The notes beneath the pieces were generated by a model. That model was not told the DNA's origin. It saw only the letters and a list, made by a program, of their open reading frames with translations, and made no database searches. The position numbers and the translations under genes are program-made. From Escherichia coli (GTDB lineage: Bacteria; Pseudomonadota; Gammaproteobacteria; Enterobacterales; Enterobacteriaceae), in assembly GCF_003991155.1 (NCBI RefSeq), contig NZ_CP031293.1: 64,000 nt of DNA; one strand, written 5' to 3'. Below are positions 2,226-19,208 of this stretch, one piece after another. Numbering within the stretch: the first letter of the stretch is position 1; each line of letters starts with the position of its first letter.

Positions 2226-3677
2226 ATGGAGTCATCCTTACGTATTGTCGCGATCACCAACTGCCCCGCCGGGATCGCTCACACCTACATGGTGGCGGAA
2301 GCCCTGGAACAGAAAGCCCGTTCTCTCGGTCATACCATTAAAGTTGAAACTCAAGGATCCAACGGCGTCGAAAACCGCTTATCCAGCGAAGAGATTGCCG
2401 CTGCCGATTACGTGATTCTCGCTACCGGGCGTGGCCTGAGCGGTGATGATCGCGCGCGATTTGCCGGGAAAAAGGTTTATGAGATTGCCATCTCCCAGGC
2501 GCTGAAAAATATCGACCAGATTTTCAGTGAATTACCGACAAACTCACAACTTTTTGCCGCAGATAGCGGCGTGAAGCTCGGCAAGCAGGAAGTGCAAAGT
2601 GGCAGCGTAATGAGCCATCTGATGGCGGGTGTTTCTGCGGCGCTGCCGTTTGTCATCGGTGGCGGTATCCTGGTGGCGCTTGCCAACATGCTGGTGCAGT
2701 TCGGTTTGCCGTATACCGATATGTCGAAAGGTGCGCCGTCGTTTACCTGGGTGGTTGAATCCATCGGTTATCTCGGCTTCACCTTTATGATCCCCATCAT
2801 GGGCGCTTATATTGCCTCGTCGATTGCCGATAAACCCGCTTTCGCTCCGGCGTTTCTGGTTTGCTATCTGGCGAATGACAAAGCCCTGCTCGGCACCCAG
2901 TCTGGCGCGGGCTTCCTCGGCGCGGTGGTGCTGGGGCTGGCGATTGGCTATTTCGTCTTCTGGTTCCGTAAAGTGCGCCTTGGCAAAGCATTACAACCGC
3001 TGCTCGGTTCCATGCTGATCCCGTTCGTCACTCTGCTGGTTTTCGGCGTACTGACTTACTACGTTATCGGACCGGTGATGTCCGACCTCATGGGCGGGTT
3101 GCTGCACTTCCTGAACACCATTCCTCCGTCAATGAAGTTTGCGGCAGCGTTTTTGGTCGGTGCGATGCTGGCGTTCGATATGGGCGGCCCTATCAATAAA
3201 ACCGCCTGGTTCTTCTGCTTCTCACTGCTGGAAAAACACATTTACGACTGGTACGCCATCGTCGGCGTTGTCGCGCTGATGCCGCCCGTCGCGGCGGGTC
3301 TTGCGACGTTCATTGCGCCCAAACTGTTTACCCGACAGGAAAAAGAGGCTGCCAGTAGTGCCATTGTGGTCGGTGCCACGGTCGCGACCGAACCGGCTAT
3401 TCCTTACGCTCTGGCGGCACCACTGCCAATGATCACCGCCAATACGCTGGCGGGCGGCATTACCGGCGTGCTGGTGATCGCTTTCGGAATCAAACGACTG
3501 GCACCTGGTTTGGGTATCTTTGACCCGCTGATCGGCCTGATGTCACCGGTAGGTTCGTTTTATCTGGTGCTGGCGATTGGCCTCGCGCTGAACATTTCAT
3601 TCATTATCGTCCTGAAAGGATTATGGTTACGCCGCAAAGCCAAAGCTGCGCAACAGGAGCTTGTCCATGAACATTGA
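2226..3677 (+). CDS. frvB: PTS fructose-like EIIBC component
   Basis: Track ORF 2220..3677 (GTG start); ATG at 2226 gives 483 aa. EIIB domain followed by multi-TM EIIC, immediately after frvA. Confidence 0.9.
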   Translation: MESSLRIVAITNCPAGIAHTYMVAEALEQKARSLGHTIKVETQGSNGVENRLSSEEIAAADYVILATGRGLSGDDRARFAGKKVYEIAISQALKNIDQIFSELPTNSQLFAADSGVKLGKQEVQSGSVMSHLMAGVSAALPFVIGGGILVALANMLVQFGLPYTDMSKGAPSFTWVVESIGYLGFTFMIPIMGAYIASSIADKPAFAPAFLVCYLANDKALLGTQSGAGFLGAVVLGLAIGYFVFWFRKVRLGKALQPLLGSMLIPFVTLLVFGVLTYYVIGPVMSDLMGGLLHFLNTIPPSMKFAAAFLVGAMLAFDMGGPINKTAWFFCFSLLEKHIYDWYAIVGVVALMPPVAAGLATFIAPKLFTRQEKEAASSAIVVGATVATEPAIPYALAAPLPMITANTLAGGITGVLVIAFGIKRLAPGLGIFDPLIGLMSPVGSFYLVLAIGLALNISFIIVLKGLWLRRKAKAAQQELVHEH

Positions 3678-4737
3678 GTTACTGCAACAGTTGTGCGAAG
3701 CCAGCGCCGTCAGCGGCGATGAACAGGAAGTTCGCGACATTCTGATAAACACGCTGGAACCCTGCGTGAATGAGATCACCTTCGATGGTCTGGGCAGCTT
3801 TGTTACCCGTAAGGGGAATAAAGGGCCGAAAGTTGCCGTTGTCGGGCATATGGATGAAGTCGGCTTTATGGTCACCCACATCGACGAGAGCGGTTTTCTG
3901 CGTTTTACCACCATTGGCGGCTGGTGGAATCAGTCGATGCTCAATCACCGGGTAACCATACGCACACACAAGGGAGTGAAAATCCCTGGTGTAATTGGCT
4001 CCGTCGCCCCACATGCGTTAACCGAAAAGCAAAAGCAACAACCGCTGTCATTTGATGAAATGTTCATTGATATTGGCGCGAACAGTCGCGAAGAGGTGGA
4101 AAAACGCGGCGTGGAAATTGGCGATTTTATTAGCCCGGAAGCCAATTTTGCCTGCTGGGGCGAAGATAAAGTGGTCGGCAAGGCGCTGGATAACCGCATC
4201 GGCTGCGCAATGATGGTCGAGCTACTACAGACAGTAAATAACCCCGAAATTACGCTTTATGGCGTTGGCAGTGTGGAAGAAGAAGTTGGGCTACGCGGGG
4301 CACAAACCTCGGCTGAACACATTAAACCGGATGTGGTGATCGTGCTGGATACCGCTGTCGCGGGCGATGTTCCAGGCATTGATAACATTAAATATCCGCT
4401 GAAACTGGGCCAGGGGCCGGGGCTGATGCTGTTTGACAAGCGCTACTTCCCCAACCAGAAACTGGTAGCTGCGTTAAAAAACTGTGCCGCACATAACGAT
4501 TTACCGCTGCAATGTTCCACCATGAAAACCGGAGCGACGGATGGCGGGCGCTACAACGTGATGGGCGGCGGGCGTCCAGTTGTCGCGCTGTGTCTGCCAA
4601 CGCGTTATCTGCACGCCAATAGCGGTATGATTTCAAAAGCCGATTACGATGCTCTGCTCACGTTGATAAGGGATTTTCTGACCACCTTAACCGCGGAGAA
4701 AGTCAACGCGTTTAGCCAGTTCCGTCAGGTGAGCTAA
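3667..4737 (+). CDS. frvX: M42-family aminopeptidase/endoglucanase-like protein
   Basis: Track ORF 3661..4737; overlaps the frvB stop; about 356 aa; third gene of the frv operon. Confidence 0.88.
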   Translation: MNIELLQQLCEASAVSGDEQEVRDILINTLEPCVNEITFDGLGSFVTRKGNKGPKVAVVGHMDEVGFMVTHIDESGFLRFTTIGGWWNQSMLNHRVTIRTHKGVKIPGVIGSVAPHALTEKQKQQPLSFDEMFIDIGANSREEVEKRGVEIGDFISPEANFACWGEDKVVGKALDNRIGCAMMVELLQTVNNPEITLYGVGSVEEEVGLRGAQTSAEHIKPDVVIVLDTAVAGDVPGIDNIKYPLKLGQGPGLMLFDKRYFPNQKLVAALKNCAAHNDLPLQCSTMKTGATDGGRYNVMGGGRPVVALCLPTRYLHANSGMISKADYDALLTLIRDFLTTLTAEKVNAFSQFRQVS

Positions 4738-6485
4738 TGCTAAACGAACGCCAGTTAAAGATTGTCGATCTGCTGGAGCAACAGCCGCGCACGCCTGGCG
4801 AGCTGGCGCAACAGACTGGCGTTTCCGGCAGGACCATCCTGCGTGATATTGACTATCTCAACTTTACCCTCAACGGCAAAGCCCGCATCACTACCAGCGG
4901 CAGCGCGGGCTACCAACTGGAAATTTTTGAGCGTCGCAGCTTTTTTCAGTTGCTGCAAAAGCACGATAACGACGATCGGCTGCTGGCGCTGTTATTACTG
5001 AATACTTTCACTCCCCGTGCGCAACTCGCCTCGACGCTTAATTTGCCAGAAACGTGGGTAGCAGAGCGCCTGCCCCGCCTGAAACAGCGCTATGAACGCG
5101 GTTTTTGTCTCGCTAGTCGCCCTGGTTTGGGCCATTTCATTGATGAGACAGAAGAGAAACGCATTATTTTGCTGGCGAATCTTTTACGCAAAGATCCGTT
5201 TTTAATTCCGCTGTCGGGCGTAACACGAGACAATTTTCAACAATTAACCACCGCCTGCGAAAAGCAACGTCGCTGGCCGCTGATGCAAAGCGACTATCTC
5301 TCAAGCCTGATTCTGGCTATTTACGCGTTGCGTAATCAGCTTACTGACACATGGCCTGAATATCCCGGTGACGAGATAAAACAAATCGTTGAACAAAGCG
5401 GCATGTTTCTTGGTGATAACGCTGTAAGAACCCTGACAGGTTTGATAGAGAAACAGCATCAGCAAGCACAGGTAATTTCTGCCGATAATGTGCAGGGGTT
5501 GCTGCAAAGGGTGCCGGGCATCGCGTCATTGAATATTATTGATACGCAGCTGGTTGAGAATATTACCGGGCATTTATTACGTTGCCTTGCCGCACCAGTA
5601 TGGATTGCTGAGCACCGCCAAAGCAGCATGAATAACCTGAAAGTCGCCTGGCCTGCGGCCTTTGATATGAGTCTGCACTTTATTACGCTACTGCGTGAAC
5701 AGCTCGATATTCCCCTTTTCGACAGCGATCTGATCGGCTTGTATTTTGCCTGTGCGCTGGAGCGGCATCAAAACGAACGCCAGCCGATCATTTTGCTCTC
5801 TGATCAGAACGCGATTGCTACTATTAATCAGCTCGCCATTGAGCGCGATGTCCTGAATTGTCGGGTGATTATTGCCCGCAGCGTAAGCGAACTGGTTGCC
5901 ATTCGCGAAGAGATTGAGCCGTTATTGATCATTAATAACAGCCATTATTTACTGGATGACGCGGTCAATAATTGCATCATCGTAAAAAATATCATTACGG
6001 CTGCCGGTATCGAACAAATAAAACATTTTCTGGCGACGGCATTTATTCGCCAGCAACCGGAGCGTTTTTTCTCTGCCCCCGGAAGTTTTCATTATTCGAA
6101 TGTACGCGGTGAAAGCTGGCAACATATTACCCGGCAAATTTGTGCTCAATTAGTCGCACAACACCATATTACCGTCGATGAAGCGCAACGGATCATCGCC
6201 CGCGAAGGCGAAGGTGAAAACCTGATTGTTAATCGCCTCGCCATCCCACATTGCTGGAGCGAACAGGAGCGACGTTTTCGTGGATTTTTTATTACCCTCG
6301 CCCAATCAGTTGAGGTGAATAACGAAGTCATTAACCATGTTTTGATCGCCTGCGCCGCCGCCGATGCGCGTCATGAGCTAAAAATATTTAGCTATCTTGC
6401 CAGCGTATTGTGTCAGCATCCGGCAGAGGTTATTGCCGGGTTAACAGGATATGAGGCATTTATGGAGTTACTTCACAAGGGGTGA
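4737..6485 (+). CDS. frvR: Transcriptional regulator of the frv operon (HTH plus PTS regulatory domains)
   Basis: 582-aa ORF, start overlaps the frvX stop (ATGA-type overlap); N-terminal HTH-like segment. Confidence 0.88.
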   Translation: MLNERQLKIVDLLEQQPRTPGELAQQTGVSGRTILRDIDYLNFTLNGKARITTSGSAGYQLEIFERRSFFQLLQKHDNDDRLLALLLLNTFTPRAQLASTLNLPETWVAERLPRLKQRYERGFCLASRPGLGHFIDETEEKRIILLANLLRKDPFLIPLSGVTRDNFQQLTTACEKQRRWPLMQSDYLSSLILAIYALRNQLTDTWPEYPGDEIKQIVEQSGMFLGDNAVRTLTGLIEKQHQQAQVISADNVQGLLQRVPGIASLNIIDTQLVENITGHLLRCLAAPVWIAEHRQSSMNNLKVAWPAAFDMSLHFITLLREQLDIPLFDSDLIGLYFACALERHQNERQPIILLSDQNAIATINQLAIERDVLNCRVIIARSVSELVAIREEIEPLLIINNSHYLLDDAVNNCIIVKNIITAAGIEQIKHFLATAFIRQQPERFFSAPGSFHYSNVRGESWQHITRQICAQLVAQHHITVDEAQRIIAREGEGENLIVNRLAIPHCWSEQERRFRGFFITLAQSVEVNNEVINHVLIACAAADARHELKIFSYLASVLCQHPAEVIAGLTGYEAFMELLHKG

Positions 6486-6534: not shown

Positions 6535-7590
6535 TTAACGCAGGCGATTATAATCATCGACCATTTCGTTGTACTCGCGTAATGCTCTCGGGAAAGAGTC
6601 TTCGACCATCCAGCTTGAGTTTGCGTCCTGAAGTTGCTCTTTATCCCAGTCAGAGTACGGGACTTTATCTCTGATGCGGCGAACGTATTTTTTAGCCTCG
6701 AGTTGATACTGGCCTGCCGAATTAATAAACGAGAAATTCATGCCGCCTTTATCCGCTTCTTTGGCCTGCGCCACCAGCGTTTCCAGTTCAGAGACTTTCT
6801 TCATTGCCGCATCAACATCAAACTTCTCTTGCGAAATCAGGTTATTAATTTGTTTCGCTGAAATCATGACTGCCAGAGAGTAGTAGTGGAATGTTTTCCC
6901 TTCTCTTTCTTCAATATTTTTCAATTCCGCAAGCTGACGCTTATCATTAATTTCCTGGATCGCCGCATGATAAGATTCGGCTACAGGTTCAAAGGCTTCC
7001 AGATTTTTTAAGAATGTCTGGTGCAGCGTTTTCCCTTTCGCAAAAGCATCGTCTTTATAATTTTCCTGGGTGTAATATTTATCCATTTCGTTAATGGTAT
7101 TACCCAACGCCACGGCAGCATCGATATAACTCACCGCTACGCCATCAATAGGTTGCAGCGCAGGCGTTAACGCCACAGCACTTTTTACGCCTTTTTCACA
7201 CTCAGCGAGGCTGGATTCACTAATGCCGTAGATGCCATAAACAGTACTCTCTTTACCGGTAGGCCCCTGTTTAAAATCTTTCAGCCAGTCAGCATAACGC
7301 GCCAGACTGCGCTGTACCGGGATCTGTAACTTGTTGTAGCACTTGATATAGACATCCATTTTTTCGTCGAAAACCGCTTGTTCATCGACCACCGGTTGGG
7401 CAGGCGTTTCAGGTTTAACTTCTGCTTTTGCAACGGGAGCTTCAGCAGGTTTCGCTTCAGGAGCTGGTGCGGCAGGTTGACTATTGGCAGGCGGGGGCGT
7501 TTCTGTTTCGGCTTTTTTATCATCACAACCCGTGAGACCGAGGGCCATGATGGCGACTATAATAGCGGAAGATAATAAATTCCTTTTCAT
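6535..7590 (-). CDS. yiiG: Lipoprotein of unknown function (DUF3829-like), Pro/Ala/Glu-rich linker after lipobox
   Basis: 351-aa ORF; signal peptide with LTGC lipobox (MKRNLLSSAIIVAIMALGLTGCDD); length matches K-12 yiiG. Confidence 0.85.
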   Translation of the reverse strand: MKRNLLSSAIIVAIMALGLTGCDDKKAETETPPPANSQPAAPAPEAKPAEAPVAKAEVKPETPAQPVVDEQAVFDEKMDVYIKCYNKLQIPVQRSLARYADWLKDFKQGPTGKESTVYGIYGISESSLAECEKGVKSAVALTPALQPIDGVAVSYIDAAVALGNTINEMDKYYTQENYKDDAFAKGKTLHQTFLKNLEAFEPVAESYHAAIQEINDKRQLAELKNIEEREGKTFHYYSLAVMISAKQINNLISQEKFDVDAAMKKVSELETLVAQAKEADKGGMNFSFINSAGQYQLEAKKYVRRIRDKVPYSDWDKEQLQDANSSWMVEDSFPRALREYNEMVDDYNRLR

Positions 7591-7784: not shown

Positions 7785-10091
7785 CTACATTCCATAACGT
7801 TCAGAAATAGCAGCATGCTTCTCTTCATTCGCCCCGGCTTCTTTGGCAAGACGCCACCAGCACAACGGATGTTCCCAGTCAGCGGTCAATTCGTGCAAGG
7901 TCTTATCGATATCACCTTTAGAAACTGAACGCGGCGCGCTGATAACAAAGTAGAACGCGGGCAGCGGCTGTGCATCTTCTCCCTGCTGGCTGTCCGTTAA
8001 CGTATAGTCCTCGTTACTGTTGCTCCAGTAGTACCAGTTTCGTTCACGGAGCGCCTCACGGAAGGCATTAAACTGTTCTTCACCAGGCATGACACCTTCG
8101 CAGAACCAGGACTCGCCGTACTCAGTCGGGATAATGGTTTGCAGGCAGGCATAAAGTGGCGTGAAATTCTTCCGTTCTTCCTCATCCTCTGGTTGGGTGT
8201 TCAATATTTCCGCATCGAATACCACAACTTCATCAACATGTTGCGGATAATCGGTCCGGTAAGTTGGCTCAATGATCCTTGCTGTTACCGGCCCAATACG
8301 TTGAGCATAGTAATAGCGGTATTCATAATTTTCCCGGAAGCGAATGTTTAGCAGTCCCCATTTTTCGTCGATAAAACCTTCACCTTCCGTAAGTTCGATT
8401 TCCAGTTCAGCTGCAATAGCACGAACCAATTCCCATTGTTGCAGGATGCTGGCGGTCGCCATGATATCCCACTGGATATTACGAATATCTTCTTCACGGC
8501 TAATCATCAGTTGCTGCAATTGTTGTAAATAATCCAGCTGTCGATCCCAGGCTTCCTGTTTTTGTGCTGCCCAGGAGCACATGCGATAAACGCCGATCCA
8601 CTCACGCCCTTTTTCGTTTTGCAGCAACTGGTGCCCAATCGACTCGAGTTCACTCCAGTCTTCCTGTTGGTTGATCACTCGCGCACGGAACCACAAGGCC
8701 ATATGTAGCAGCCCCGCCTGTTCATACTGCTTCGCCAGGTGCTCAATGGTTTGCAGATCGTCACGGTGGAGCAATAAATCCAACAGATCGAAGCAAAGAC
8801 CATTATCTTCCTGGATGTGGCTTTCGACGTAGCGTTGCAGAAGTTCAATCGACTCATCAATCGCATTACAGGCGTTTAACGCATTGACCAGTTTGCCCAG
8901 CAATTCCGCATCATCTGGCGCGTTCAGGTAAGCGCGGCGGAATGTTTCGACGTCTTTTTCTGGATCTGGCTGCGTTTCTTCATCGCTATTTTCAGGTATT
9001 TCTACAACCGGACGAGCAAGCAACTCTGCTTCTTTGGCGGCGATTTTTTCACTCAGTTCGAGAAACTCACGATCAACCCCCAGTAACACGCGTAATTTTG
9101 GCATGTGTCGCTGGGCCAGTTTCATCGCTATTTTGGCAACCCAGACGGATTCACGCTCCAGCGCCAGGGTAATTTGCAGTTTCGCCAGATCAACCACTTT
9201 GCGGTGCGCTCCGGCCTGCGAGCGGTGCTCCAGTATTTTTTGGATGATGCGCGCCAGTTGCCAGTTGTTTCTTTGTGGATGACGGGGAAGTAACACAGTA
9301 ATGATTTTCAGCCATGACCCCCATGAATGGGGAGTCAGATCTGACCAACGCGGTAATTCCTCCCAGACTTCTTCGTCCTGCCCGCATAACGCCATGATGT
9401 ACAGTTTTTTGAGGTGATTACTAATGCGGTCGCGGCCCCAGTAATCATTGGCTTCTGTCAGCTCATCAATCAGTATGCGTGCTTCATCATAACGCTGAAG
9501 TTCAATCAGAATATCGGCACGAGTATAAAGTAATGCATCAATATCATCTTCCCCGGCTGCTTTAACTGCGTCGATTTGTCGATCCAGATAAGCCAGTGCC
9601 TCCTCTATTCTTTTGGAATCTATCAGTGCACTGGCATATTCAGTGGACAAACACTGAAAACAGCTCCAGGTCGGATCAATCCGCGCGATGGTTTCTTCAC
9701 ATACCGCCATACGTTCATTCGCCCAGCCAGGTGCATCAATATTTTCGTAGCAGGCGGATAAATCCTGGGTAACGCAGATAGATTGTGGGCAATCTTTTGT
9801 CTCTTCCCGGTGCGCTTTTTCAAACAGCGCTACCACGTCTGGCAGCACCTTTTCACCTTCTTCATAGTTAGTCAGGCGATGACGCATTTCCCAGTGACCA
9901 ATAAATATTTCCAGCCACGGATTTTTTGCCACCTGGGTAAGTGCTTTTACTTCAGGTAACAGCGAATCGCACTTTTCCATTTGCAGGTGCATAACGCCTT
10001 CCGAATAATCATCGATAAGTTGCGGAATATACTCCTGCCCGGCATCGCGTAACTCCTTAGTATATTTGTGATACCACTCCCATATATCCAT
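7785..10091 (-). CDS. 768-aa alpha-helical, acidic, Trp-rich protein of unknown function; downstream partner of the HtpG paralog
   Basis: Long ORF with E. coli-like composition; its ATG (10091..10089) lies 1 nt after the upstream gene's TAA (10095..10093), indicating translational coupling. No motif recognised by eye. Confidence 0.75.
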   Translation of the reverse strand: MDIWEWYHKYTKELRDAGQEYIPQLIDDYSEGVMHLQMEKCDSLLPEVKALTQVAKNPWLEIFIGHWEMRHRLTNYEEGEKVLPDVVALFEKAHREETKDCPQSICVTQDLSACYENIDAPGWANERMAVCEETIARIDPTWSCFQCLSTEYASALIDSKRIEEALAYLDRQIDAVKAAGEDDIDALLYTRADILIELQRYDEARILIDELTEANDYWGRDRISNHLKKLYIMALCGQDEEVWEELPRWSDLTPHSWGSWLKIITVLLPRHPQRNNWQLARIIQKILEHRSQAGAHRKVVDLAKLQITLALERESVWVAKIAMKLAQRHMPKLRVLLGVDREFLELSEKIAAKEAELLARPVVEIPENSDEETQPDPEKDVETFRRAYLNAPDDAELLGKLVNALNACNAIDESIELLQRYVESHIQEDNGLCFDLLDLLLHRDDLQTIEHLAKQYEQAGLLHMALWFRARVINQQEDWSELESIGHQLLQNEKGREWIGVYRMCSWAAQKQEAWDRQLDYLQQLQQLMISREEDIRNIQWDIMATASILQQWELVRAIAAELEIELTEGEGFIDEKWGLLNIRFRENYEYRYYYAQRIGPVTARIIEPTYRTDYPQHVDEVVVFDAEILNTQPEDEEERKNFTPLYACLQTIIPTEYGESWFCEGVMPGEEQFNAFREALRERNWYYWSNSNEDYTLTDSQQGEDAQPLPAFYFVISAPRSVSKGDIDKTLHELTADWEHPLCWWRLAKEAGANEEKHAAISERYGM

Positions 10092-10092
10092 T

Positions 10093-11928
10093 TTATTTTC
10101 CTTGATTAATTAAGACAGGAATAACCTGAGTAAAATCTTCCAGTGCCTGGTGTAAATCCCAATGCTGTTCTTTATTACCGCTGGAGCACAAAATCACTTT
10201 CAGCGATTTTAATAAGCGTAATGCCGCTGCGGGCTGTTGCTGGTGTTGTAATGCCGTCACCAGTTGCATGATGCAAGGGTTATTAAGGTTGATGTATAAA
10301 CTTGAGGTTTTCGTTTTTTGGATTTGTGAAGTAAATTGCCGCGCCAGCATTAACGCTGCGGTGCTGATGCGTTTATCTGCGTCATCCTGTTCGAGAATTT
10401 GTTTTAATTCTGCTTCGCGGTCTGGCGTAACCACTAACGGTAAAACGGCGGGTTCGAAGCGGGAGATAATTAATTGCTCGCCATCGCAGAGATGCTCTTC
10501 CAGATAAGCTACCTGCTCTTCGGGTAATTCCGCCAGGCTGAACAACTGCTCATTACCTGTTTGCGTACCGACTTCGACAATCCGGCAGTGATATAACAGC
10601 GCCCAGCGACGTAAAAATGGCACGACGGCATAGCGATCGCCACGGGCAACGGGCCGTTGCAGAATGTGGAACAACATCTCTTCAAAACCGCCGTCGCGGC
10701 TTAACAGAATATGAATGCTGTTATTAACGCGTAAATCCTTCGCCAGCAACGCCCCTTTTGACGTTGGCACCTGCAAGCGATCTTTGAGCAAATCAAACAG
10801 ACGGTCATCACATAATGCCGCACCGAGCAACGCTTCGTTGTGGCGCATTAATACACGCCGCCAGATTTCTGGCTGATTTTGTGCGAGATCGGACAAACCA
10901 GAAATCAGCGCCTCTTTTAACGCCTCCTGCACCGCAACCCAGGTTTCGTCCCGCTGGAGATCTTCCCGGCTCGCCGTAGGCGTTAGTTTCGATGACTCAA
11001 TCACGCCGCCAATAAATCCGGCCCAGGGAGGTAACAACTCACGCGCTTCATCATCCAGTAACATACCGCGCAAAAACAGCGACAGGTTGCGGTTATCGCT
11101 GGTGCCGTAGGTTGCGCCATCCTGAATCCATAAAATCCCAACCGCGTCGCTCATCCCCACGGGCACCACCGGAATGGTGCAAATCGGTTCGAAGGAGGAT
11201 TCAAACTGGGCGGCAAAGGCGAGATTTTTACGCTGTACCAGCGCGCGGTGCATGGTTACGCCTTCGGGGGCAACTTCACGCCACGGTGGTTGAAGTTTAT
11301 TTACCGGCTCGCTGGCATCGCCGACATAGACCGGTTCGTGCAGCAATATACAGTAGCGGGAAAGAACGCGGTTCAGCAAATTGTTACTCGCCAGATGGCT
11401 GTACTCTTCTTTGAGCGTCAGAATCACCTGCGTACCCGTTTCCGAGGACTGATGCGGCGTAACGGTATATTTTTGCCCGTCGGTAGAGTGGTATTTCCAG
11501 CTCTGATCCGGCGTTTGCCAGGATGTGGTCAACACCGTGACCTCTTTCGCCAACACAAAGGCCGACAAAAAACCGAGGCCGAACATACCAATTAAACCGG
11601 TGTTGTCATCCTGCTGGCGCAACATTCGGGTATAACCCACGCCTACTGTCGCCAGGAAGCCGTGAATTTCACTTTCTGTCAGTCCAGCGCCAGTATCGCT
11701 AATAGTGATAGTGGACTTCGCCACGTCTGCCACCACACGAATCGCGTTATCCTTTGGCGCATCGGGCTGCTCAATCCTGCGGCGAACGATCGCATCATGG
11801 CCGTTCTGCACCAGCTCGCGCACGGCAACCACGGGAGTGGAGTAAAGATGCTTACTGAGCACCTCAATTAAGCCGTTTAAATTAACTTCTGTAGAATATG
11901 AACTACCAGGTAACTGTAATGTACTCAT
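10093..11928 (-). CDS. HtpG/Hsp90-paralog GHKL (Bergerat-fold) ATPase, 611 aa
   Basis: N-terminal motifs read directly: ELVQNGHDA (N-box, 11791..11817), ISDTGAGL (G1 box), LIGMFGLGFLSAF (G2 box), colinear with the HtpG N-domain (ELISNASDA / ISDNGVGM / LIGQFGVGFYSAF). Confidence 0.8.
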   Translation of the reverse strand: MSTLQLPGSSYSTEVNLNGLIEVLSKHLYSTPVVAVRELVQNGHDAIVRRRIEQPDAPKDNAIRVVADVAKSTITISDTGAGLTESEIHGFLATVGVGYTRMLRQQDDNTGLIGMFGLGFLSAFVLAKEVTVLTTSWQTPDQSWKYHSTDGQKYTVTPHQSSETGTQVILTLKEEYSHLASNNLLNRVLSRYCILLHEPVYVGDASEPVNKLQPPWREVAPEGVTMHRALVQRKNLAFAAQFESSFEPICTIPVVPVGMSDAVGILWIQDGATYGTSDNRNLSLFLRGMLLDDEARELLPPWAGFIGGVIESSKLTPTASREDLQRDETWVAVQEALKEALISGLSDLAQNQPEIWRRVLMRHNEALLGAALCDDRLFDLLKDRLQVPTSKGALLAKDLRVNNSIHILLSRDGGFEEMLFHILQRPVARGDRYAVVPFLRRWALLYHCRIVEVGTQTGNEQLFSLAELPEEQVAYLEEHLCDGEQLIISRFEPAVLPLVVTPDREAELKQILEQDDADKRISTAALMLARQFTSQIQKTKTSSLYINLNNPCIMQLVTALQHQQQPAAALRLLKSLKVILCSSGNKEQHWDLHQALEDFTQVIPVLINQGK

Positions 11929-12237: not shown

Positions 12238-13074
12238 TTAATTATGAATCAATCGCTGCGGATGAGTATAAACCGTTGCCCGACCCGGTTTACAAAAACC
12301 TACCAGTGTCAGATTACAGCGTTCAGCCACTTCTACAGCAAGTGTGGTCGCGGCAGATACCGCAAACAAAATCTCTACGCCACACATCGCTGACTTTTGC
12401 ACCATTTCATAACTGGCACGGCTGGAAACCAGCACCGCACCTTGCTGCCAGCTTTCCCCTTCTTGTGACCGGCGGCCTAACAGTTTGTCCAGCGCCACAT
12501 GGCGACCCACGTCTTCATGCCCGCCGACCAGTTCGCCAGATGGCAACATCCATGCAGCGGCGTGAGTACAACCAGTCAGTTGCCCCACTGGCTGGAAATC
12601 ATTGAGATGACGTAATGCATCATCCAGTTTGTTGAGATCAAACGTCTGGGTGAATGGCAGCGGCTGCACCGGTTTACCGATGTCATTAAGTTGCTCCACG
12701 CCGCATACGCCACAGCCCGTACGCCCCGCCAGCGCCCGGCGACGTTCCTTCAACCCCATAAAGCGGCGGCTGGAAAGCTCAATTTGAACTTCAAGACCAT
12801 TACAGGAAGGAACGACATCCATGCCAAAGATATCGCGCGGACTTTCGATTATCCCCTCGGAAAGCGAAAAACCGAGCGCAAAGTACTCAAGGTCTTTGGG
12901 CGACGCCATCATCACCACATGCGAAATGCCGTTGTAGACCAGCGCAACGGGAACCTCTTCCGCCACCTCATCTAACCGTGGGTGTTGTAAATCATCACGC
13001 CGCCATAACTCAATTTGACGAACACCTGTGATATTTGTCACATTTTCGATTTCTTTTTGCTGTGTTTTTTTCAC
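12238..13074 (-). CDS. fdhD: Formate dehydrogenase sulfurtransferase/accessory protein
   Basis: 278-aa ORF divergent from fdoG; conserved GCGVCG cysteine motif; position as in the fdo locus. Confidence 0.9.
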
Positions 13075-13267
13075 TTTCTCTTAACCAGATAAGAACACAC
13101 ACACCAACATTATGGTATTCTGTTACAAACCCTTCCTGGATGGAGGGAAATTGAGCCAATTCTGGACCTTTGCGGCCCCTTCCGCAAAGAAAAATAACTC
13201 CCACTCCCTGCACACGCAGCAAGCGAATGTAAATGGGACGTGACAATGTCGAAACAAGGAGCAATCC

Positions 13268-16200
13268 ATGCAGGTCAGCAGAAGGCAGTTCTTTAAGATC
13301 TGCGCTGGCGGTATGGCAGGCACCACGGCAGCGGCACTGGGTTTTGCACCCAGCGTAGCACTCGCGGAAACCCGGCAGTATAAACTGCTGCGCACCCGCG
13401 AAACCCGTAATACCTGCACCTATTGTTCCGTAGGCTGTGGGCTGTTGATGTACAGCCTCGGTGACGGAGCAAAAAACGCCAAAGCATCTATCTTCCATAT
13501 CGAAGGCGATCCGGATCACCCGGTCAACCGCGGTGCACTTTGTCCGAAAGGCGCTGGCCTGGTGGATTTCATCCACTCCGAAAGCCGCCTGAAGTTTCCG
13601 GAATACCGTGCGCCAGGTTCTGATAAATGGCAACAAATCAGTTGGGAAGAGGCGTTTGATCGCATCGCCAAACTGATGAAAGAAGACCGCGATGCGAACT
13701 ACATTGCGCAAAACGCCGAAGGCGTGACTGTTAACCGCTGGCTCTCCACCGGGATGCTGTGTGCTTCCGCGTCGAGTAACGAAACCGGCTATTTAACGCA
13801 AAAATTCTCCCGCGCGCTGGGGATGCTCGCGGTCGACAACCAGGCGCGTGTCTGACACGGACCAACGGTAGCAAGTCTTGCTCCAACATTTGGTCGCGGT
13901 GCGATGACCAACCACTGGGTCGACATCAAGAACGCCAACCTCGTCGTGGTGATGGGCGGTAACGCCGCTGAAGCTCACCCGGTCGGGTTCCGCTGGGCGA
14001 TGGAAGCCAAAATTCACAACGGCGCGAAGCTGATTGTGATCGATCCTCGCTTTACACGTACGGCGGCGGTGGCTGACTACTATGCCCCTATTCGTTCCGG
14101 TACTGACATTGCTTTCCTGTCAGGCGTATTGCTGTACCTGCTGAACAATGAAAAATTCAACCGCGAATACACCGAAGCCTATACCAACGCCAGCCTGATC
14201 GTGCGTGAGGATTACGGCTTTGAAGATGGCCTGTTCACCGGCTACGACGCGGAAAAACGCAAGTACGATAAATCCAGCTGGACCTACGAGCTGGACGAAA
14301 ACGGCTTCGCCAAACGCGATACCACGCTGCAACATCCGCGCTGCGTGTGGAACTTGCTGAAACAGCACGTTTCCCGTTATACGCCAGATGTGGTTGAAAA
14401 CATCTGCGGTACGCCAAAAGACGCGTTCCTGAAAGTCTGCGAATACATCGCCGAAACCAGTGCTCACGATAAAACTGCCTCGTTCCTTTACGCGCTCGGC
14501 TGGACGCAACACTCCATTGGTGCGCAAAACATTCGTACGATGGCGATGATCCAGCTGCTGCTCGGCAACATGGGGATGGCAGGCGGCGGCGTTAACGCCC
14601 TGCGCGGTCACTCCAATATTCAGGGGCTGACCGACCTGGGGCTACTGTCGCAGAGTCTGCCAGGTTACATGACGTTGCCAAGCGAGAAGCAGACCGATCT
14701 GCAAACTTACCTCGCTGCCAACACGCCAAAACCACTGCTGGAAGGCCAGGTCAACTACTGGGGCAACTACCCGAAATTCTTCGTCTCTATGATGAAGGCC
14801 TTCTTTGGTGATAAAGCGACGGCGGAAAATAGCTGGGGCTTTGACTGGTTGCCGAAGTGGGATAAAGGCTACGACGTCCTGCAATACTTCGAGATGATGA
14901 AAGAGGGCAAGGTCAATGGCTATATCTGCCAGGGCTTTAACCCTGTTGCCTCATTCCCGAACAAAAACAAAGTGATCGGCTGTCTGTCGAAGCTGAAATT
15001 CCTCGTGACTATCGACCCGCTGAACACTGAAACCTCTAACTTCTGGCAGAACCACGGTGAGCTGAACGAAGTTGACTCGTCGAAGATCCAGACCGAAGTG
15101 TTCCGTCTGCCATCGACCTGCTTTGCGGAAGAGAACGGTTCAATCGTCAACTCTGGTCGCTGGTTGCAGTGGCACTGGAAAGGTGCGGACGCCCCGGGGA
15201 TTGCGCTGACTGACGGCGAGATCCTCTCCGGTATCTTCCTGCGCTTGCGCAAGATGTATGCCGAACAGGGTGGCGCGAACCCGGACCAGGTGCTGAACAT
15301 GACCTGGAACTACGCCATTCCGCATGAGCCATCTTCAGAAGAAGTGGCGATGGAGAGCAACGGCAAAGCGCTGGCCGATATTACCGACCCGGCAACCGGT
15401 GCGGTTATCGTCAAGAAAGGCCAACAACTTAGCTCGTTCGCCCAACTGCGCGATGACGGTACAACCTCCTGTGGCTGCTGGATTTTCGCCGGTAGCTGGA
15501 CGCCGGAAGGCAACCAGATGGCGCGTCGTGATAACGCCGATCCGTCTGGCCTCGGTAACACGCTGGGCTGGGCATGGGCATGGCCGCTTAACCGCCGCAT
15601 TCTGTATAACCGCGCCTCCGCAGATCCGCAGGGTAACCCATGGGATCCGAAGCGTCAGTTGCTGAAATGGGACGGCACTAAGTGGACCGGCTGGGATATT
15701 CCGGATTACAGCGCAGCGCCTCCGGGCAGCGGCGTAGGGCCGTTTATCATGCAGCAGGAAGGCATGGGACGTCTGTTTGCCCTCGATAAGATGGCGGAAG
15801 GTCCGTTCCCGGAACACTACGAGCCGTTTGAAACGCCGCTGGGAACTAACCCGCTGCATCCAAACGTTATCTCGAACCCGGCTGCGCGAATCTTTAAAGA
15901 CGACGCCGAAGCATTGGGTAAAGCCGATAAGTTCCCGTATGTCGGAACCACCTATCGTCTGACCGAGCACTTCCACTACTGGACCAAACACGCGCTGTTG
16001 AACGCGATTTTGCAACCAGAGCAGTTTGTGGAAATCGGGGAGTCGCTGGCGAATAAACTTGGCATTGCCCAGGGCGATACTGTGAAAGTCTCCTCCAACC
16101 GTGGCTATATCAAAGCCAAAGCGGTAGTGACCAAACGTATTCGCACGCTGAAAGCAAACGGCAAAGATATCGATACCATCGGTATTCCGATTCACTGGGG

Positions 16201-16318
16201 CTATGAAGGTGTTGCGAAAAAAGGCTTTATTGCCAATACGTTGACGCCATTCGTCGGTGATGCGAACACGCAGACGCCGGAGTTTAAGTCCTTCCTTGTG
16301 AATGTGGAAAAGGTGTAA
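13268..16318 (+). CDS. fdoG: Formate dehydrogenase-O major subunit (selenoprotein; in-frame UGA = Sec at 13853..13855)
   Basis: Track ORFs 13268..13855 and 13904..16318 are in the same frame, separated only by TGA. Twin-arginine signal MQVSRRQFFK. Total 1016 codons, as expected for FdoG. Confidence 0.92.
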
Positions 16319-16330
16319 CGGAGACGACAT

Positions 16331-17233
16331 ATGGCTTATCAATCGCAAGATATCATTCGTCGTTCCGCGACTAACGGTCTGACCCCCGCGCCTCAGGCGC
16401 GGGACTTCCAGGAAGAAGTGGCGAAACTCATCGACGTCACCACCTGTATCGGCTGTAAAGCCTGTCAGGTGGCGTGTTCAGAGTGGAACGACATTCGCGA
16501 TACCGTCGGCAATAACATTGGGGTGTACGACAACCCCAATGATTTAAGTGCCAAATCGTGGACGGTGATGCGATTCTCGGAAGTGGAGCAGAACGACAAA
16601 CTGGAATGGCTGATCCGCAAAGACGGCTGTATGCACTGTTCCGATCCAGGCTGCCTGAAAGCGTGCCCGGCGGAAGGGGCAATTATTCAGTATGCCAACG
16701 GTATCGTCGACTTCCAGTCCGAGCAGTGCATCGGCTGCGGTTATTGCATTGCGGGCTGTCCGTTCGACATTCCGCGCCTCAACCCGGAAGACAACCGCGT
16801 CTACAAATGTACGTTGTGCGTTGACCGCGTGGTGGTTGGGCAAGAACCGGCCTGCGTGAAGACCTGCCCAACGGGCGCGATTCACTTCGGTACGAAAGAG
16901 TCGATGAAAACGCTGGCGAGCGAGCGCGTGGCGGAGCTGAAAACCCGTGGTTACGACAATGCGGGTTTGTACGACCCGGCAGGCGTCGGTGGTACACATG
17001 TTATGTACGTGCTGCACCATGCTGACAAGCCAAATCTGTATCATGGCTTGCCGGAGAACCCGGAAATCAGCGAAACCGTGAAATTCTGGAAAGGCATCTG
17101 GAAACCGCTCGCAGCTGTTGGCTTTGCGGCTACCTTCGCAGCCAGTATCTTCCACTACGTGGGTGTCGGTCCGAACCGTGCGGATGAGGAAGAGAATAAT
17201 CTGCACGAAGAGAAAGACGAGGAGCGCAAATGA
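16331..17233 (+). CDS. fdoH: Formate dehydrogenase-O iron-sulfur subunit
   Basis: 300 aa with multiple CxxCxxCxxxCP ferredoxin motifs and a C-terminal TM segment. Confidence 0.92.
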
Positions 17234-17865
17234 AACGACGTGACACCATCGTGCGCTACACCGCGCCGGAACGTATCAACCACTGGATCACCGCCTTCTG
17301 CTTCATCCTGGCGGCGGTGAGCGGGCTGGGCTTTTTGTTCCCGTCCTTCAACTGGTTGATGCAAATCATGGGCACACCGCAGCTGGCGCGCATTCTGCAC
17401 CCGTTTGTCGGCGTGGTTATGTTTGCCTCGTTCATCATCATGTTTTTCCGTTACTGGCATCACAACCTAATCAATCGGGATGATATCTTTTGGGCGAAGA
17501 ATATTCGTAAGATCGTCGTCAACGAGGAAGTAGGTGACACCGGGCGTTATAACTTCGGTCAGAAATGCGTTTTCTGGGCGGCGATTATTTTCCTGGTTCT
17601 GCTGCTGGTGAGCGGCGTGATTATCTGGCGTCCTTATTTTGCGCCTGCTTTCTCAATCCCGGTGATCCGATTCGCGTTAATGCTGCATTCATTTGCCGCA
17701 GTGGCGTTAATTGTGGTTATCATGGTGCATATCTACGCCGCCCTTTGGGTAAAAGGCACGATTACCGCCATGGTGGAAGGATGGGTGACCAGCGCCTGGG
17801 CGAAGAAACATCACCCGCGCTGGTACCGTGAGGTCCGCAAGACAACGGAAAAGAAAGCTGAATGA
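17230..17865 (+). CDS. fdoI: Formate dehydrogenase-O cytochrome b556 subunit
   Basis: 211 aa, four TM helices, start overlaps the fdoH stop. Confidence 0.92.
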
Positions 17866-18791
17866 GTATTCGCATAATCCCGCAAGATGAGCTGGGTTCG
17901 AGCGAGAAACGTACGGCGGATATGATTCCGCCGTTATTGTTCCCTCGGCTCAAGAATTTATACAACCGCCGCGCCGAGCGTCTGCGCGAGCTGGCAGAAA
18001 ATAATCCGCTGGGTGATTACCTGCGCTTTGCTGCGCTTATCGCCCACGCCCAGGAAGTGGTGCTGTACGACCATCCGCTGGAGATGGATCTGACCACGCG
18101 CATTAAAGAAGCCAGCGCACAAGGCAAGCCCCCGCTGGATATTCACGTTCTGCCGCGTGATAAGCACTGGCAAAAGCTGCTGATGGCGCTGATTGCTGAG
18201 CTGAAACCTGAAATGAGCGGCCCGGCGCTGGCAGTGATTGAGAATCTGGAGAAGGCATCGACTCAGGAGCTGGAAGATATGGCCAGCGCACTGTTTGCCT
18301 CTGATTTCTCGTCCGTCAGCAGCGATAAAGCGCCGTTTATCTGGGCTGCGCTGTCGCTCTACTGGGCGCAGATGGCTAATCTGATCCCCGGCAAAGCCCG
18401 CGCTGAATACGGCGAACAACGTCAATATTGCCCGGTATGTGGCTCTATGCCGGTGTCCAGCATGGTGCAAATTGGCACCACTCAGGGGCTGCGTTACCTG
18501 CACTGCAACCTGTGTGAAACCGAATGGCACGTAGTGCGCGTAAAATGCAGCAACTGTGAACAGAGCGGCAAACTGCATTACTGGTCGCTGGATGACGAAC
18601 AGGCCGCGATTAAAGCCGAAAGCTGCGATGACTGCGGCACTTACCTGAAGATTCTTTATCAGGAAAAAGAACCGAAAGTTGAAGCCGTGGCAGATGACCT
18701 CGCCTCTCTGGTACTGGACGCGCGAATGGAGCAAGAAGGCTATGCCCGTAGTTCCATCAACCCGTTCCTGTTCCCGGGTGAAGGGGAGTAA
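17862..18791 (+). CDS. fdhE: Formate dehydrogenase formation protein
   Basis: 309 aa with CxxC pairs ([28 protein letters not shown]); overlaps the fdoI stop. Confidence 0.92.
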
Positions 18792-18827: not shown

Positions 18828-19208
18828 TTACAGCTCATAGGGTGTGACGACACCTGCTATTCCCGCAAAATCTCTCGTATTTCGCGTTACCAGTTCAAAG
18901 CCATAAATCTGTGCTGTTGCCAGAATAATGGCATCTGGAAGTTTCATTCTATACTCCTGCCTTAAAGCAACGCTTCGTTCCGCGATATCCTGCGAAATCC
19001 CAATAACGTTAAACGCACTCATTGCAATCCGTGTGCGATGTTCTTGATCATATTTTTTTGCGCCAACCAGCACCTCCATCCATGTGACCAGACTAATCGC
19101 ATTCTGTAGGGGCCATGCCTCCAGAGCCTGTTTTGCCTCAATTCGTCCGCTGAACAAATCGATAAGGATATTGGTATCAAAAAGCGCAGTTCTTTTTGCC
19201 ATTACCAT
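18828..19208 (-). CDS. vapC: PIN-domain ribonuclease toxin, VapC-like
   Basis: 126 aa; N-terminal DTNILID acidic motif typical of PIN/VapC; start overlaps the stop of the upstream RHH gene (ATGGTAA). Confidence 0.75.

Follow-up and report, generated by a model that had tools for sequence, protein, structure and literature searches.

A selenocysteine UGA codon and its SECIS element in fdoG, the formate dehydrogenase-O alpha subunit gene of Escherichia coli

Background

The three E. coli genes for selenopolypeptides are fdnG, fdoG and fdhF (PMC4009273), a listing which agrees with the statement in a first-pass annotation of the DNA analysed here that FdoG is a selenoprotein. In the bacterial SECIS hairpin, a bulged U17 and the loop bases G23 and U24, at a fixed distance from the UGA, are the determinants for SelB (review, PMC8659212). 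The SECIS of fdhF (Rfam family SECIS_2, RF01988) is the experimentally dissected paradigm. The paralogue fdnG lies in another locus, yddG-fdnGHI, which lacks fdhD and fdhE, and is 74.9% (nt) and 76.9% (aa) identical to fdoG. Here we describe an E. coli locus in which TGA 13853..13855 is almost certainly the Sec196 codon of fdoG, encoding the catalytic subunit of respiratory formate dehydrogenase-O, and in which the mRNA from 13850 to 13908 folds, with the same near-certainty, as a bacterial SECIS.

Results and discussion

The fdo locus and the reading frame of fdoG

The window, i.e. the whole 64,000-nt stretch of DNA that was analysed, was 100% identical to several RefSeq E. coli chromosomes. 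As listed in Table 1, a divergent fdhD was followed by fdoG-fdoH-fdoI-fdhE, the organisation of the fdo locus. The FdoG here was 99.8% (aa) and 97.8% (nt) identical to that of K-12, as against 76.9% (aa) for K-12 FdnG, and the gamma subunit encoded by fdoI scored higher with the FDH-O model NF007924 (453.3 bits) than with the FDH-N gamma model NF007558 (243.6 bits). By its identity with K-12 FdoG and the gene order, the coding sequence is thus fdoG on sequence comparison, as it had been called in the first-pass annotation. FdoG contained the Pfam domains of its family (PF04879, Fe4S4; PF00384, Molybdopterin; PF01568, Molydop_binding), and its closest solved structure was FdnG (1KQF_A, 1902 bits, with X at Sec in the query). 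Its N-terminus was predicted to be a twin-arginine signal, an assignment based on the established export of FdnG and FdoG.

The frame from ATG 13268 to TAA 16316..16318 comprised 1017 codons, with stops at codons 196 (TGA) and 1017 only. The nucleotides around codon 196 were gtc tga cac gga cca and the peptide context was VDNQARV-U-HGPTVASL, so reading of the frame and its translation confirmed two earlier claims, a single frame broken only by this TGA and the context QARV-U-HGP. On the profile TIGR01553 (formate dehydrogenase alpha equivalog), the upstream fragment covered positions 1–194 (271.4 bits) and the downstream fragment, which alone scored 1278.7 bits (cutoff 814.2), positions 196–1009, the TGA being the sole missing position (195). 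The Pfam Molybdopterin domain was interrupted by the same TGA. We take codon 196 to be the position of the Mo ligand in this enzyme family, and Sec196 to be catalytic. Neither Sec machinery genes nor tRNA genes of any kind were found in the 64-kb window; selC (tRNA-Sec) was present in 5424 of 5426 E. coli genomes.

Table 1. Features of the fdo locus and of the fdoG selenocysteine site (positions in the window)
Feature	Position	Strand	Description	Basis
fdhD	12238..13074	-	accessory sulfurtransferase; fdo locus marker; divergently transcribed	TIGR00129, 339.2 bits
fdoG CDS	13268..16318	+	formate dehydrogenase-O alpha subunit, 1016 aa including Sec196	single frame through UGA
Twin-arginine (Tat) signal peptide region (predicted), MQVSRRQFFKICAGGMAGTTAAALGFAPSVALA	13268..13366	+		SRRQFFK motif in translation
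Exact fdoG/K-12 fdnG identity block	13850..13920	+	71 nt; footprint of frozen Enterobacterales synonymous sites	longest exact run
SECIS element	13850..13908	+	Rfam SECIS_3 (RF01989)	84.3 bits, E 2e-19
UGA, codon 196	13853..13855	+	recoded as selenocysteine	same codon number and context in K-12 fdoG and fdnG
Lower helix, 5' strand	13855..13865	+	A3..A13, last base of UGA included	MFE structure
Apical SelB-binding hairpin (predicted)	13867..13884	+	G15-C32, counting from U of UGA	-4.5 kcal/mol
Lower helix, 3' strand	13890..13900	+	U38..U48	MFE structure
fdoH	16331..17233	+	FDH-O beta, Fe-S subunit	TIGR01582, 478.7 bits; named fdoH in RefSeq
fdoI	17230..17865	+	FDH-O cytochrome b556 subunit	NF007924, 453.3 bits
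fdhE	17862..18791	+	formate dehydrogenase accessory protein	NF002925, 603.5 bits

A SECIS element at the UGA

The Rfam model SECIS_3 matched the + strand only and over its full length (1–59/59), at 84.3 bits against a gathering threshold of 63, with the UGA of codon 196 at model positions 4–6; with SECIS_2, the fdhF type, the site scored 28.1 bits against a gathering threshold of 70 and so falls outside that family. A SECIS immediately 3' of the UGA had been expected from the first-pass annotation and was found there, while the 3' limit of 13905 given for it proved too short, the element ending at 13908 by the Rfam match and at ~13918 by synonymous conservation. An antisense function (ORF 13793..14017 on the minus strand, or a minus-strand element) was also considered and had no support, no minus-strand Rfam match being obtained.

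In the predicted fold (numbering from the U of the UGA), the apical helix consisted of the pairs G15-C32, G16-C31, A18-U30, G19-C29, C20-G28, A21-U27 and A22-U26, with U17 (13869) bulged and a loop of G23, U24 and C25 (13875..13877). It began 11 nt past the UGA, the same distance as in fdhF. All 10 pairs of the lower stem were canonical in the E. coli register (-14.6 kcal/mol). In the register of the SECIS_3 consensus, which is one base off this best fit, 7 of 9 pairs formed on the E. coli sequence (-7.2 kcal/mol), A-G and A-C being mismatched; the consensus pairing was rejected for E. coli, since a one-base shift restored full pairing. Among 66 variants from other species (see below), 44 fitted the Rfam register better and 22 the other.

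Folding stability was a poor guide. The stretch 13856..13900, in which a SelB-binding hairpin with a GU-containing loop had been proposed, was indeed predicted to fold into a hairpin (-13.8 kcal/mol, z -1.70). The MFE of 51–53-nt stretches was no better than that of shuffled sequences (z -0.67 for 13853..13905, and -0.76), and the 18-nt apical hairpin gave z -2.06. As a positive control, the experimentally validated fdhF SECIS gave z +0.10 over 51 nt and -0.67 for its minimal hairpin. Because the validated element itself did not beat its shuffles, MFE stability was rejected as a discriminating test: the stable hairpin on which the first-pass annotation had let its reading depend is present, but a hairpin of z -0.67 to -1.70 says little when fdhF scores +0.10. 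Thermodynamic stability is thus unusable as a test for bacterial SECIS elements; what does discriminate is the score with the covariance model, the precise spacing together with the determinant bases, and synonymous-site covariation.

A frozen block common to fdoG and fdnG

The longest exact run between fdoG and K-12 fdnG was 71 nt, the next being 36 nt, and it was centred on the SECIS element. In 29 enterobacterial fdoG/fdnG loci, third-position entropy averaged 0.098 bits over codons +1..+18 and 1.203 bits in the flanks (Mann-Whitney p = 7e-11), and synonymous sites were nearly frozen from 13850 to ~13918. The E. coli 60-mer recurred exactly in 23 of these 29 loci, and in 26 of 120 loci collected by a pattern search in other species. 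The ~69-nt block takes in the codon that precedes the UGA, both the lower helix and the internal loop, and ~18 nt past the 3' end of the predicted helix.

Recurrent gene conversion between the paralogues, instead of selection on the RNA, might account for the 71-nt identity; this bears on why the block is frozen and not on the identity of the site. Within 10 enterobacterial genomes the paralogous 60-mers were 97–100% identical and their flanks 69–88%, and the longest exact run falls at the block, both of which would favour conversion. Yet the same 60-mer was present in both paralogues across Escherichia, Providencia, Photorhabdus, Yersinia and Serratia, in E. coli, Superficieibacter and E. cloacae alike the run extended from -3 to +68, and the rare differences were not common to the two paralogues of one genome (0 in L039 and 2 in L040; 1 in L083 and 0 in L084). 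This is the pattern predicted by ancestral retention under purifying selection and not by species-specific homogenisation, so that gene conversion, to which we leave a small chance, is improbable as the chief reason why fdoG and fdnG are identical here.

In enterobacterial fdoG and fdnG, conservation of the element thus extends past the limits of the minimal hairpin bound by SelB. We suggest, tentatively and with more doubt than confidence, that in the Enterobacterales selection reaches far beyond the 17-nt minimal SelB hairpin, over the ~69-nt block 13850..~13918, in both paralogues and across genera, with a lower-helix register unlike that of Pseudomonas- or Burkholderia-type sequences. If so, the extended element would do more than position SelB, and in a sequence-specific way: it might tune RF2 competition at the UGA, contact the ribosome or be co-adapted to the enterobacterial SelB.

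Covariation at synonymous sites

The pattern search mentioned above yielded 120 loci with 66 distinct homologous 60-mers. For codons -5..+6 the pattern fixed the first and second positions and left the third free. Over the 66 distinct 60-mers the upper helix was paired in 100% of cells, with compensatory changes at two pairs: 18-30 from the U of the UGA (also numbered 21-33) was GC in 54, AU in 9 and GU in 3, and 21-27 (also numbered 24-30) was AU in 47, CG in 15 and GC in 4. Both sit at third-codon, synonymous positions (Val(+5)/Ala(+9) and Ala(+6)/Leu(+8), respectively). The covariation score was 0.188 versus 0.123 for shuffles, none of 500 of which reached 0.188, and slid registers gave at most 0.081. 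U17, G23 and U24, the last a synonymous site, were invariant in 66/66 variants, and the invariance of sequence in this region, U17 included, is partly ascertainment because the pattern fixes codon positions 1 and 2. The lower helix was paired in 83.5–87% of cells among the 66 variants, and its register was lineage-specific.

These data bear on the view that the hairpin is a by-product of a conserved protein and that the UGA is read independently of a SECIS, e.g. by a near-cognate tRNA for Trp or Cys. Amino-acid conservation over codons +1..+18 was high, which alone would hold much of the nucleotide sequence constant, and the MFE was unexceptional against shuffles. Constraint was found at the synonymous third positions, however: the third bases of ACG(+4) and AGU(+7) were unchanged in 112 distinct sequences, those of Val(+5)-Ala(+9) and Ala(+6)-Leu(+8) covaried as given above with zero unpaired cells, and third-position entropy fell from 1.20 bits outside the element to 0.10 within it. 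With a covariance-model score 21 bits over the gathering threshold in addition, a by-product hairpin is extremely improbable. Together, synonymous-site covariation and entropy footprints mark out the SECIS element cleanly.

Reading of the UGA

The 121-nt stretch 13820..13940 was matched at >=90% identity in 5425/5426 complete E. coli genomes, among which the TGA codon itself was read directly in the fetched records only. Many E. coli matches were 122 nt long instead of 121 nt; a frameshift was rejected as their cause, the extra base being an alignment-end artefact and direct alignment giving a substitution at 13822 only. In the other species the TGA stood in the same protein context at 120/120 loci, a figure to be read with the fact that the search pattern demanded TGA.

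That the TGA is a true stop (a nonsense mutation, a pseudogene, or the boundary between a 195-aa fragment and a separately initiated 804-aa protein), as the mechanical ORF call that divides the region there and the usable ATG 13904 downstream would allow, has practically no chance against the retention of the region across E. coli genomes and of the TGA in fdnG and at the loci of other species, a TIGR01553 alignment continuous across it, one Pfam domain split by it, a strong SECIS match directly downstream, amino-acid conservation of the codons from the TGA to ATG 13904, and a single CDS in the RefSeq records inspected.

The selenocysteine codon and SECIS of fdoG are real, ordinary and already described; the first-pass annotation had called them expected biology, and the established picture of selenocysteine recoding stands unchanged. 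By analogy with fdhF and fdnG, SelB, the elongation factor specific for Sec, loaded with GTP and Sec-tRNA(Sec), would bind the apical hairpin 13867..13884 through the bulged U17 and the loop bases G23 and U24, 11 nt past the UGA. Once a ribosome arrives at the UGA, this tethered ternary complex would compete with RF2 by bringing Sec-tRNA(Sec), with anticodon UCA, to the A site. Translation would then run on through the hairpin, which also codes for residues 197 to ~214, and yield the complete selenoprotein of 1016 aa. The lower helix, formed by 13855..13865 and 13890..13900, probably lengthens the hairpin as far as the stop codon. Nothing contradictory to the Sec196 and SECIS reading was met in the analysis.

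Consequences for annotation

In a mechanical ORF list, fdoG was broken into two ORFs of one frame, 13268..13855 with 195 aa and 13904..16318 with 804 aa, the second counted from its first ATG. Each of the five inspected RefSeq records gave a single CDS of 3051 nt (fdoG) or 3048 nt (fdnG), with the coordinates of fdoG the same as here. The warning that automated callers would split the gene thus held for naive ORF finders and not for these five records. Among them, PGAP-annotated records labelled fdoG as "fdnG / formate dehydrogenase-N subunit alpha". The main value of the site is one of annotation: a naive caller gives products of 195 and 804 aa and misses the 1016-aa selenoprotein with its catalytic Sec196, whereas curated pipelines already cope with the fdoG UGA, the PGAP naming as fdnG aside.

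Comparison with known elements

The alignment with fdnG and fdhF that had been proposed as a check showed an identical element in fdnG and, in fdhF, the same determinants at the same distances from the UGA. In K-12 fdoG (b3894) the SECIS 60-mer and the SECIS_3 score (84.3 bits) were identical to those here, and one base differed within 13800..13950, at 13822, outside the element. Relative to the K-12 fdo locus, the strain analysed here had in addition a two-gene insertion at yiiG/fdhD, and vapC/copG downstream of fdhE. In K-12 fdnG (b1474) the 71 exactly identical nucleotides covered GUC-UGA and the whole SECIS, with the same SECIS_3 score, the same codon number, 196, and the same peptide context.

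The fdhF element belongs to another Rfam family, K-12 fdhF scoring 87.1 bits with SECIS_2, the sister of SECIS_3. There too CAC GG comes after the UGA, in the peptide ARV-U-HGP, and the apical hairpin, like that of fdoG, starts at G15, has a bulged U17 and presents G23, U24 and C25 in its loop. The loop of fdhF is a 4-nt GGUC closed by A21-U26, whereas in fdoG one more pair, A22-U26, reduces the loop to a GUC triloop, and the lower stem sequences of the two differ. The fdhF enzyme is cytoplasmic and has 715 aa with Sec140, compared with 1016 aa and Sec196 for fdoG.

Reading frame and gene identity

A TGA in the context gtc tga cac gg was read directly from the sequence of fdoG. Translation of the frame gave 1017 codons ending in TAA, with codon 196 as the sole internal stop (VDNQARV*HGPTVASL), and a mechanical ORF list carried this frame as two pieces of 195 and 804 aa. 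The first-pass annotation of one frame broken by TGA alone was thus confirmed exactly. The two fragments covered positions 1–194 and 196–1009 of the TIGR01553 profile, indicating that the TGA was the single absent profile position; it also split the Pfam Molybdopterin domain in two.

Several RefSeq E. coli chromosomes matched a 3.4-kb query spanning the site at 100% identity, and the query had a match in 5425 of the 5426 complete genomes of the species. The ORF shared 97.8% nucleotide and 99.8% amino acid identity with K-12 fdoG but only 74.9% and 76.9% with its paralogue fdnG. The gene layout was that of the K-12 fdo locus and differed from that of yddG-fdnGHI. The nearest solved structure was E. 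coli FdnG (1KQF).

Automated callers had been expected to split the gene. This held for naive ORF finders only, since all five RefSeq records inspected kept a single CDS across the TGA (3051 nt for fdoG or 3048 nt for fdnG). In one identical record (L001), the annotated gene at 3269..6319 corresponded to the whole fdoG frame (13268..16318 of the window). The PGAP-annotated E. coli records listed named it "fdnG / formate dehydrogenase-N subunit alpha", though its neighbours were fdoH and fdoI (with fdhE and fdhD); the label was apparently taken over from that of the TIGR01553 model. Separately, one E. coli assembly carries the chromosomal yddG-fdnGHI region on a 504-kb record (L126, NZ_JBYVFY010000003.1) that bears the label plasmid pckj3_1_3. 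The label is probably wrong and the record a chromosomal contig, though it may be a chromid; this record explains some of the seven "plasmid" places in the E. coli population search.

Features of the fdoG region (base numbering counts U of UGA as 1; codons are counted from UGA)
Feature	Window position	Details
yiiG	6535..7590	DUF3829
Two-gene insertion	7785..11928 (-)	between yiiG and fdhD
fdhD	12238..13074	divergent from fdoG; TIGR00129
FdoG-1 5' UTR thermometer match	13099..13297 (+)	RF02778, sub-threshold
fdoG frame	13268..16318	ORF pieces 13268..13855 and 13904..16318
gtc tga cac gg	13850..13860	TGA at 13853..13855
SECIS_3	13850..13908 (+)	RF01989, full length
Lower helix (predicted fold)		A3..A13 with U38..U48
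Lower-helix segments with two registers	13858..13865 with 13890..13898	columns 7-16 / 41-51 of the 60-mer alignment (A1)
Apical hairpin (predicted fold)	13867..13884	G15-C32, G16-C31, bulged U17, A18-U30, G19-C29, C20-G28, A21-U27, A22-U26
Longest exact run with K-12 fdnG	13850..13920	71 nt
Synonymous freeze	13850..~13918	onset codon -1 (13850), fading by codon +22 (13919)
Freeze beyond the lower helix	13901..13918 (+)	codons +16..+21
fdoH		neighbour of fdoG; TIGR01582
fdoI		neighbour of fdoG; NF007924
fdhE		neighbour of fdoG; NF002925
VapC/CopG pair	18828..19208 (-) and adjacent ORF	downstream of fdhE

SECIS element

The site matched SECIS_3 at 84.3 bits (gathering 63, E 2e-19, Rfam release 15), and the fdhF-type SECIS_2 at only 28.1 bits against a gathering threshold of 70. 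Among the positive controls, SECIS_3 scored 84.3 bits on both K-12 fdoG and fdnG, and SECIS_2 scored 87.1 bits on K-12 fdhF. The predicted apical hairpin started 11 nt downstream of the UGA and carried a G23-U24-C25 loop closed by A22-U26. U17, G23 and U24 occupied positions identical to those in fdhF; these are traits of the minimal 17-nt SECIS and SelB contact nucleotides (PMC8659212). The score, the spacing and these bases supported the proposed hairpin directly 3' of the UGA, and the suggested comparison with fdnG and fdhF agreed.

RNA folding, also suggested, predicted a hairpin (-13.8 kcal/mol) downstream of the UGA, so that the first-pass reading survived its own refutation criterion, albeit in a test of low power. 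Against dinucleotide shuffles, MFE z-scores for fdoG were -0.67 (53 nt), -0.76 (51 nt), -1.70 (the 45 nt first proposed) and -2.06 (18-nt apical hairpin), and those for the experimentally validated fdhF SECIS were +0.10 and -0.67. Thermodynamics alone gave no support for the fdoG hairpin beyond chance. Hairpin stability is not diagnostic of bacterial SECIS, a mildly non-obvious result.

Covariation across species

A GTDB set with one genome per species was scanned with a pattern from the peptide NQARV-U-HGPTVA, leaving every third codon position free. At least 120 loci matched; the matches listed included Enterobacterales, Pseudomonas, Burkholderiales, Xanthomonadales, Rhizobiales, Anaeromyxobacter and others, and held 66 distinct 60-mers with no indels. 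Among these 66 listed variants, every cell of the upper helix (100%) held a standard pair. Pair 18-30 was GC in 54, AU in 9 and GU in 3, and pair 21-27 was AU in 47, CG in 15 and GC in 4. These pairs couple the third bases of Val+5/Ala+9 and Ala+6/Leu+8, respectively, so the protein cannot be the source of the covariation. Among the matches listed, the covariation score was 0.188 against 0.123 in column shuffles (0/500 as high) and at most 0.081 in slid registers, and paired cells reached 90.3% against at most 56.5% in slid registers. G23 and U24 were unchanged in all 66 listed variants, as was U17, but its base was dictated by the search pattern. In 112 distinct sequences among the matches listed, neither the synonymous third position of Thr+4 (G16) nor that of codon +7 (U24) varied.

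The lower helix was looser (83.5–87% paired among the 66 listed variants) and had two lineage-dependent registers. The Rfam consensus suited 44 variants and a one-base shift suited 22, including the sequence in the window. C9/C42-type sequences (most Pseudomonas, Burkholderia-like) followed the consensus register and A9/U42-type sequences (E. coli and relatives) the other. In the window, the shifted register formed 10/10 pairs (-14.6 kcal/mol) and the Rfam register 7/9 (-7.2 kcal/mol). That the E. coli lower stem suits a register other than the Rfam consensus is again mildly non-obvious.

Synonymous freeze in Enterobacterales

The exact run shared with K-12 fdnG compared with a runner-up of 36 nt. 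Under a naive independence model, the probability that all 21 degenerate same-amino-acid codons of this block match was ~1e-5. In 10 enterobacterial genomes with both paralogues, the 60-mers were 97–100% identical and the flanks 69–88%. Third-position entropy was averaged across 29 enterobacterial loci of both paralogues (Escherichia to Morganella, Providencia, Photorhabdus, Xenorhabdus, Yersinia, Serratia and Hafnia); it came to 0.098 bits in codons +1..+18, against 1.203 bits beyond the element (Mann-Whitney p = 7e-11). Gene conversion between fdoG and fdnG is an improbable origin of the block, because identical sequence recurs from genus to genus and the few single differences seen in one paralogue are absent from the other paralogue in that genome. 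These comparisons are taken to indicate an ancestral element kept by purifying selection.

The freeze of ~69 nt exceeds the minimal element, also a mildly non-obvious result. It stayed near-complete (H3 0–0.36 bits) for ~18 nt past the point where the predicted lower helix ends on its 3' side, which the predicted structure leaves unexplained; the matching upstream codons -2..-9 were variable, indicating that this part was not due to an extended stem.

Neighbouring features

The two-gene insertion was absent from K-12, where yiiG directly follows fdhD. It encoded a 611-aa GHKL/HSP90-like ATPase (Pfam HATPase_c_3 1.6e-9, HSP90 3e-8; weak PADLOC TmtA match, 5.9e-6) and a 768-aa protein with TPR, named "ATP-binding protein" and "hypothetical protein" in RefSeq, and could represent a module of accessory or defence-like type. 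A VapC toxin (PIN domain, Pfam 4.5e-19) and a CopG-family antitoxin lay where K-12 carries yiiF/yiiE. The thermometer match (32 bits, gathering 50, E 5.8e-5) aligned well mainly at the ribosome-binding site and first fdoG codons; its upstream helices fitted poorly.

Recoding and comparison with K-12

The inserted Sec196 is presumably the molybdenum ligand of the active site, judging from the family and the FdnG structure. No tRNA genes were found within the 64-kb window; of the 5426 E. coli genomes, 5424 contained a match to the K-12 selC (tRNA-Sec) sequence. Following the E. coli paradigm, SelB with GTP and Sec-tRNA(Sec) would bind the apical hairpin via U17 and G23/U24, and would thereby be in place to hand over Sec-tRNA(Sec) at the UGA, which lies 11 nt upstream and where it would compete with RF2 (PMC4513850 gives the kinetic framework). 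The hairpin would then be unwound and translated by the ribosome, as it also codes residues 197 to ~214. Overall, the first-pass reading of a selenocysteine recoding site with its SECIS was supported. The TGA and SECIS are the textbook fdoG Sec codon and the catalogued element; the site is identical to that of K-12 and thus already known.
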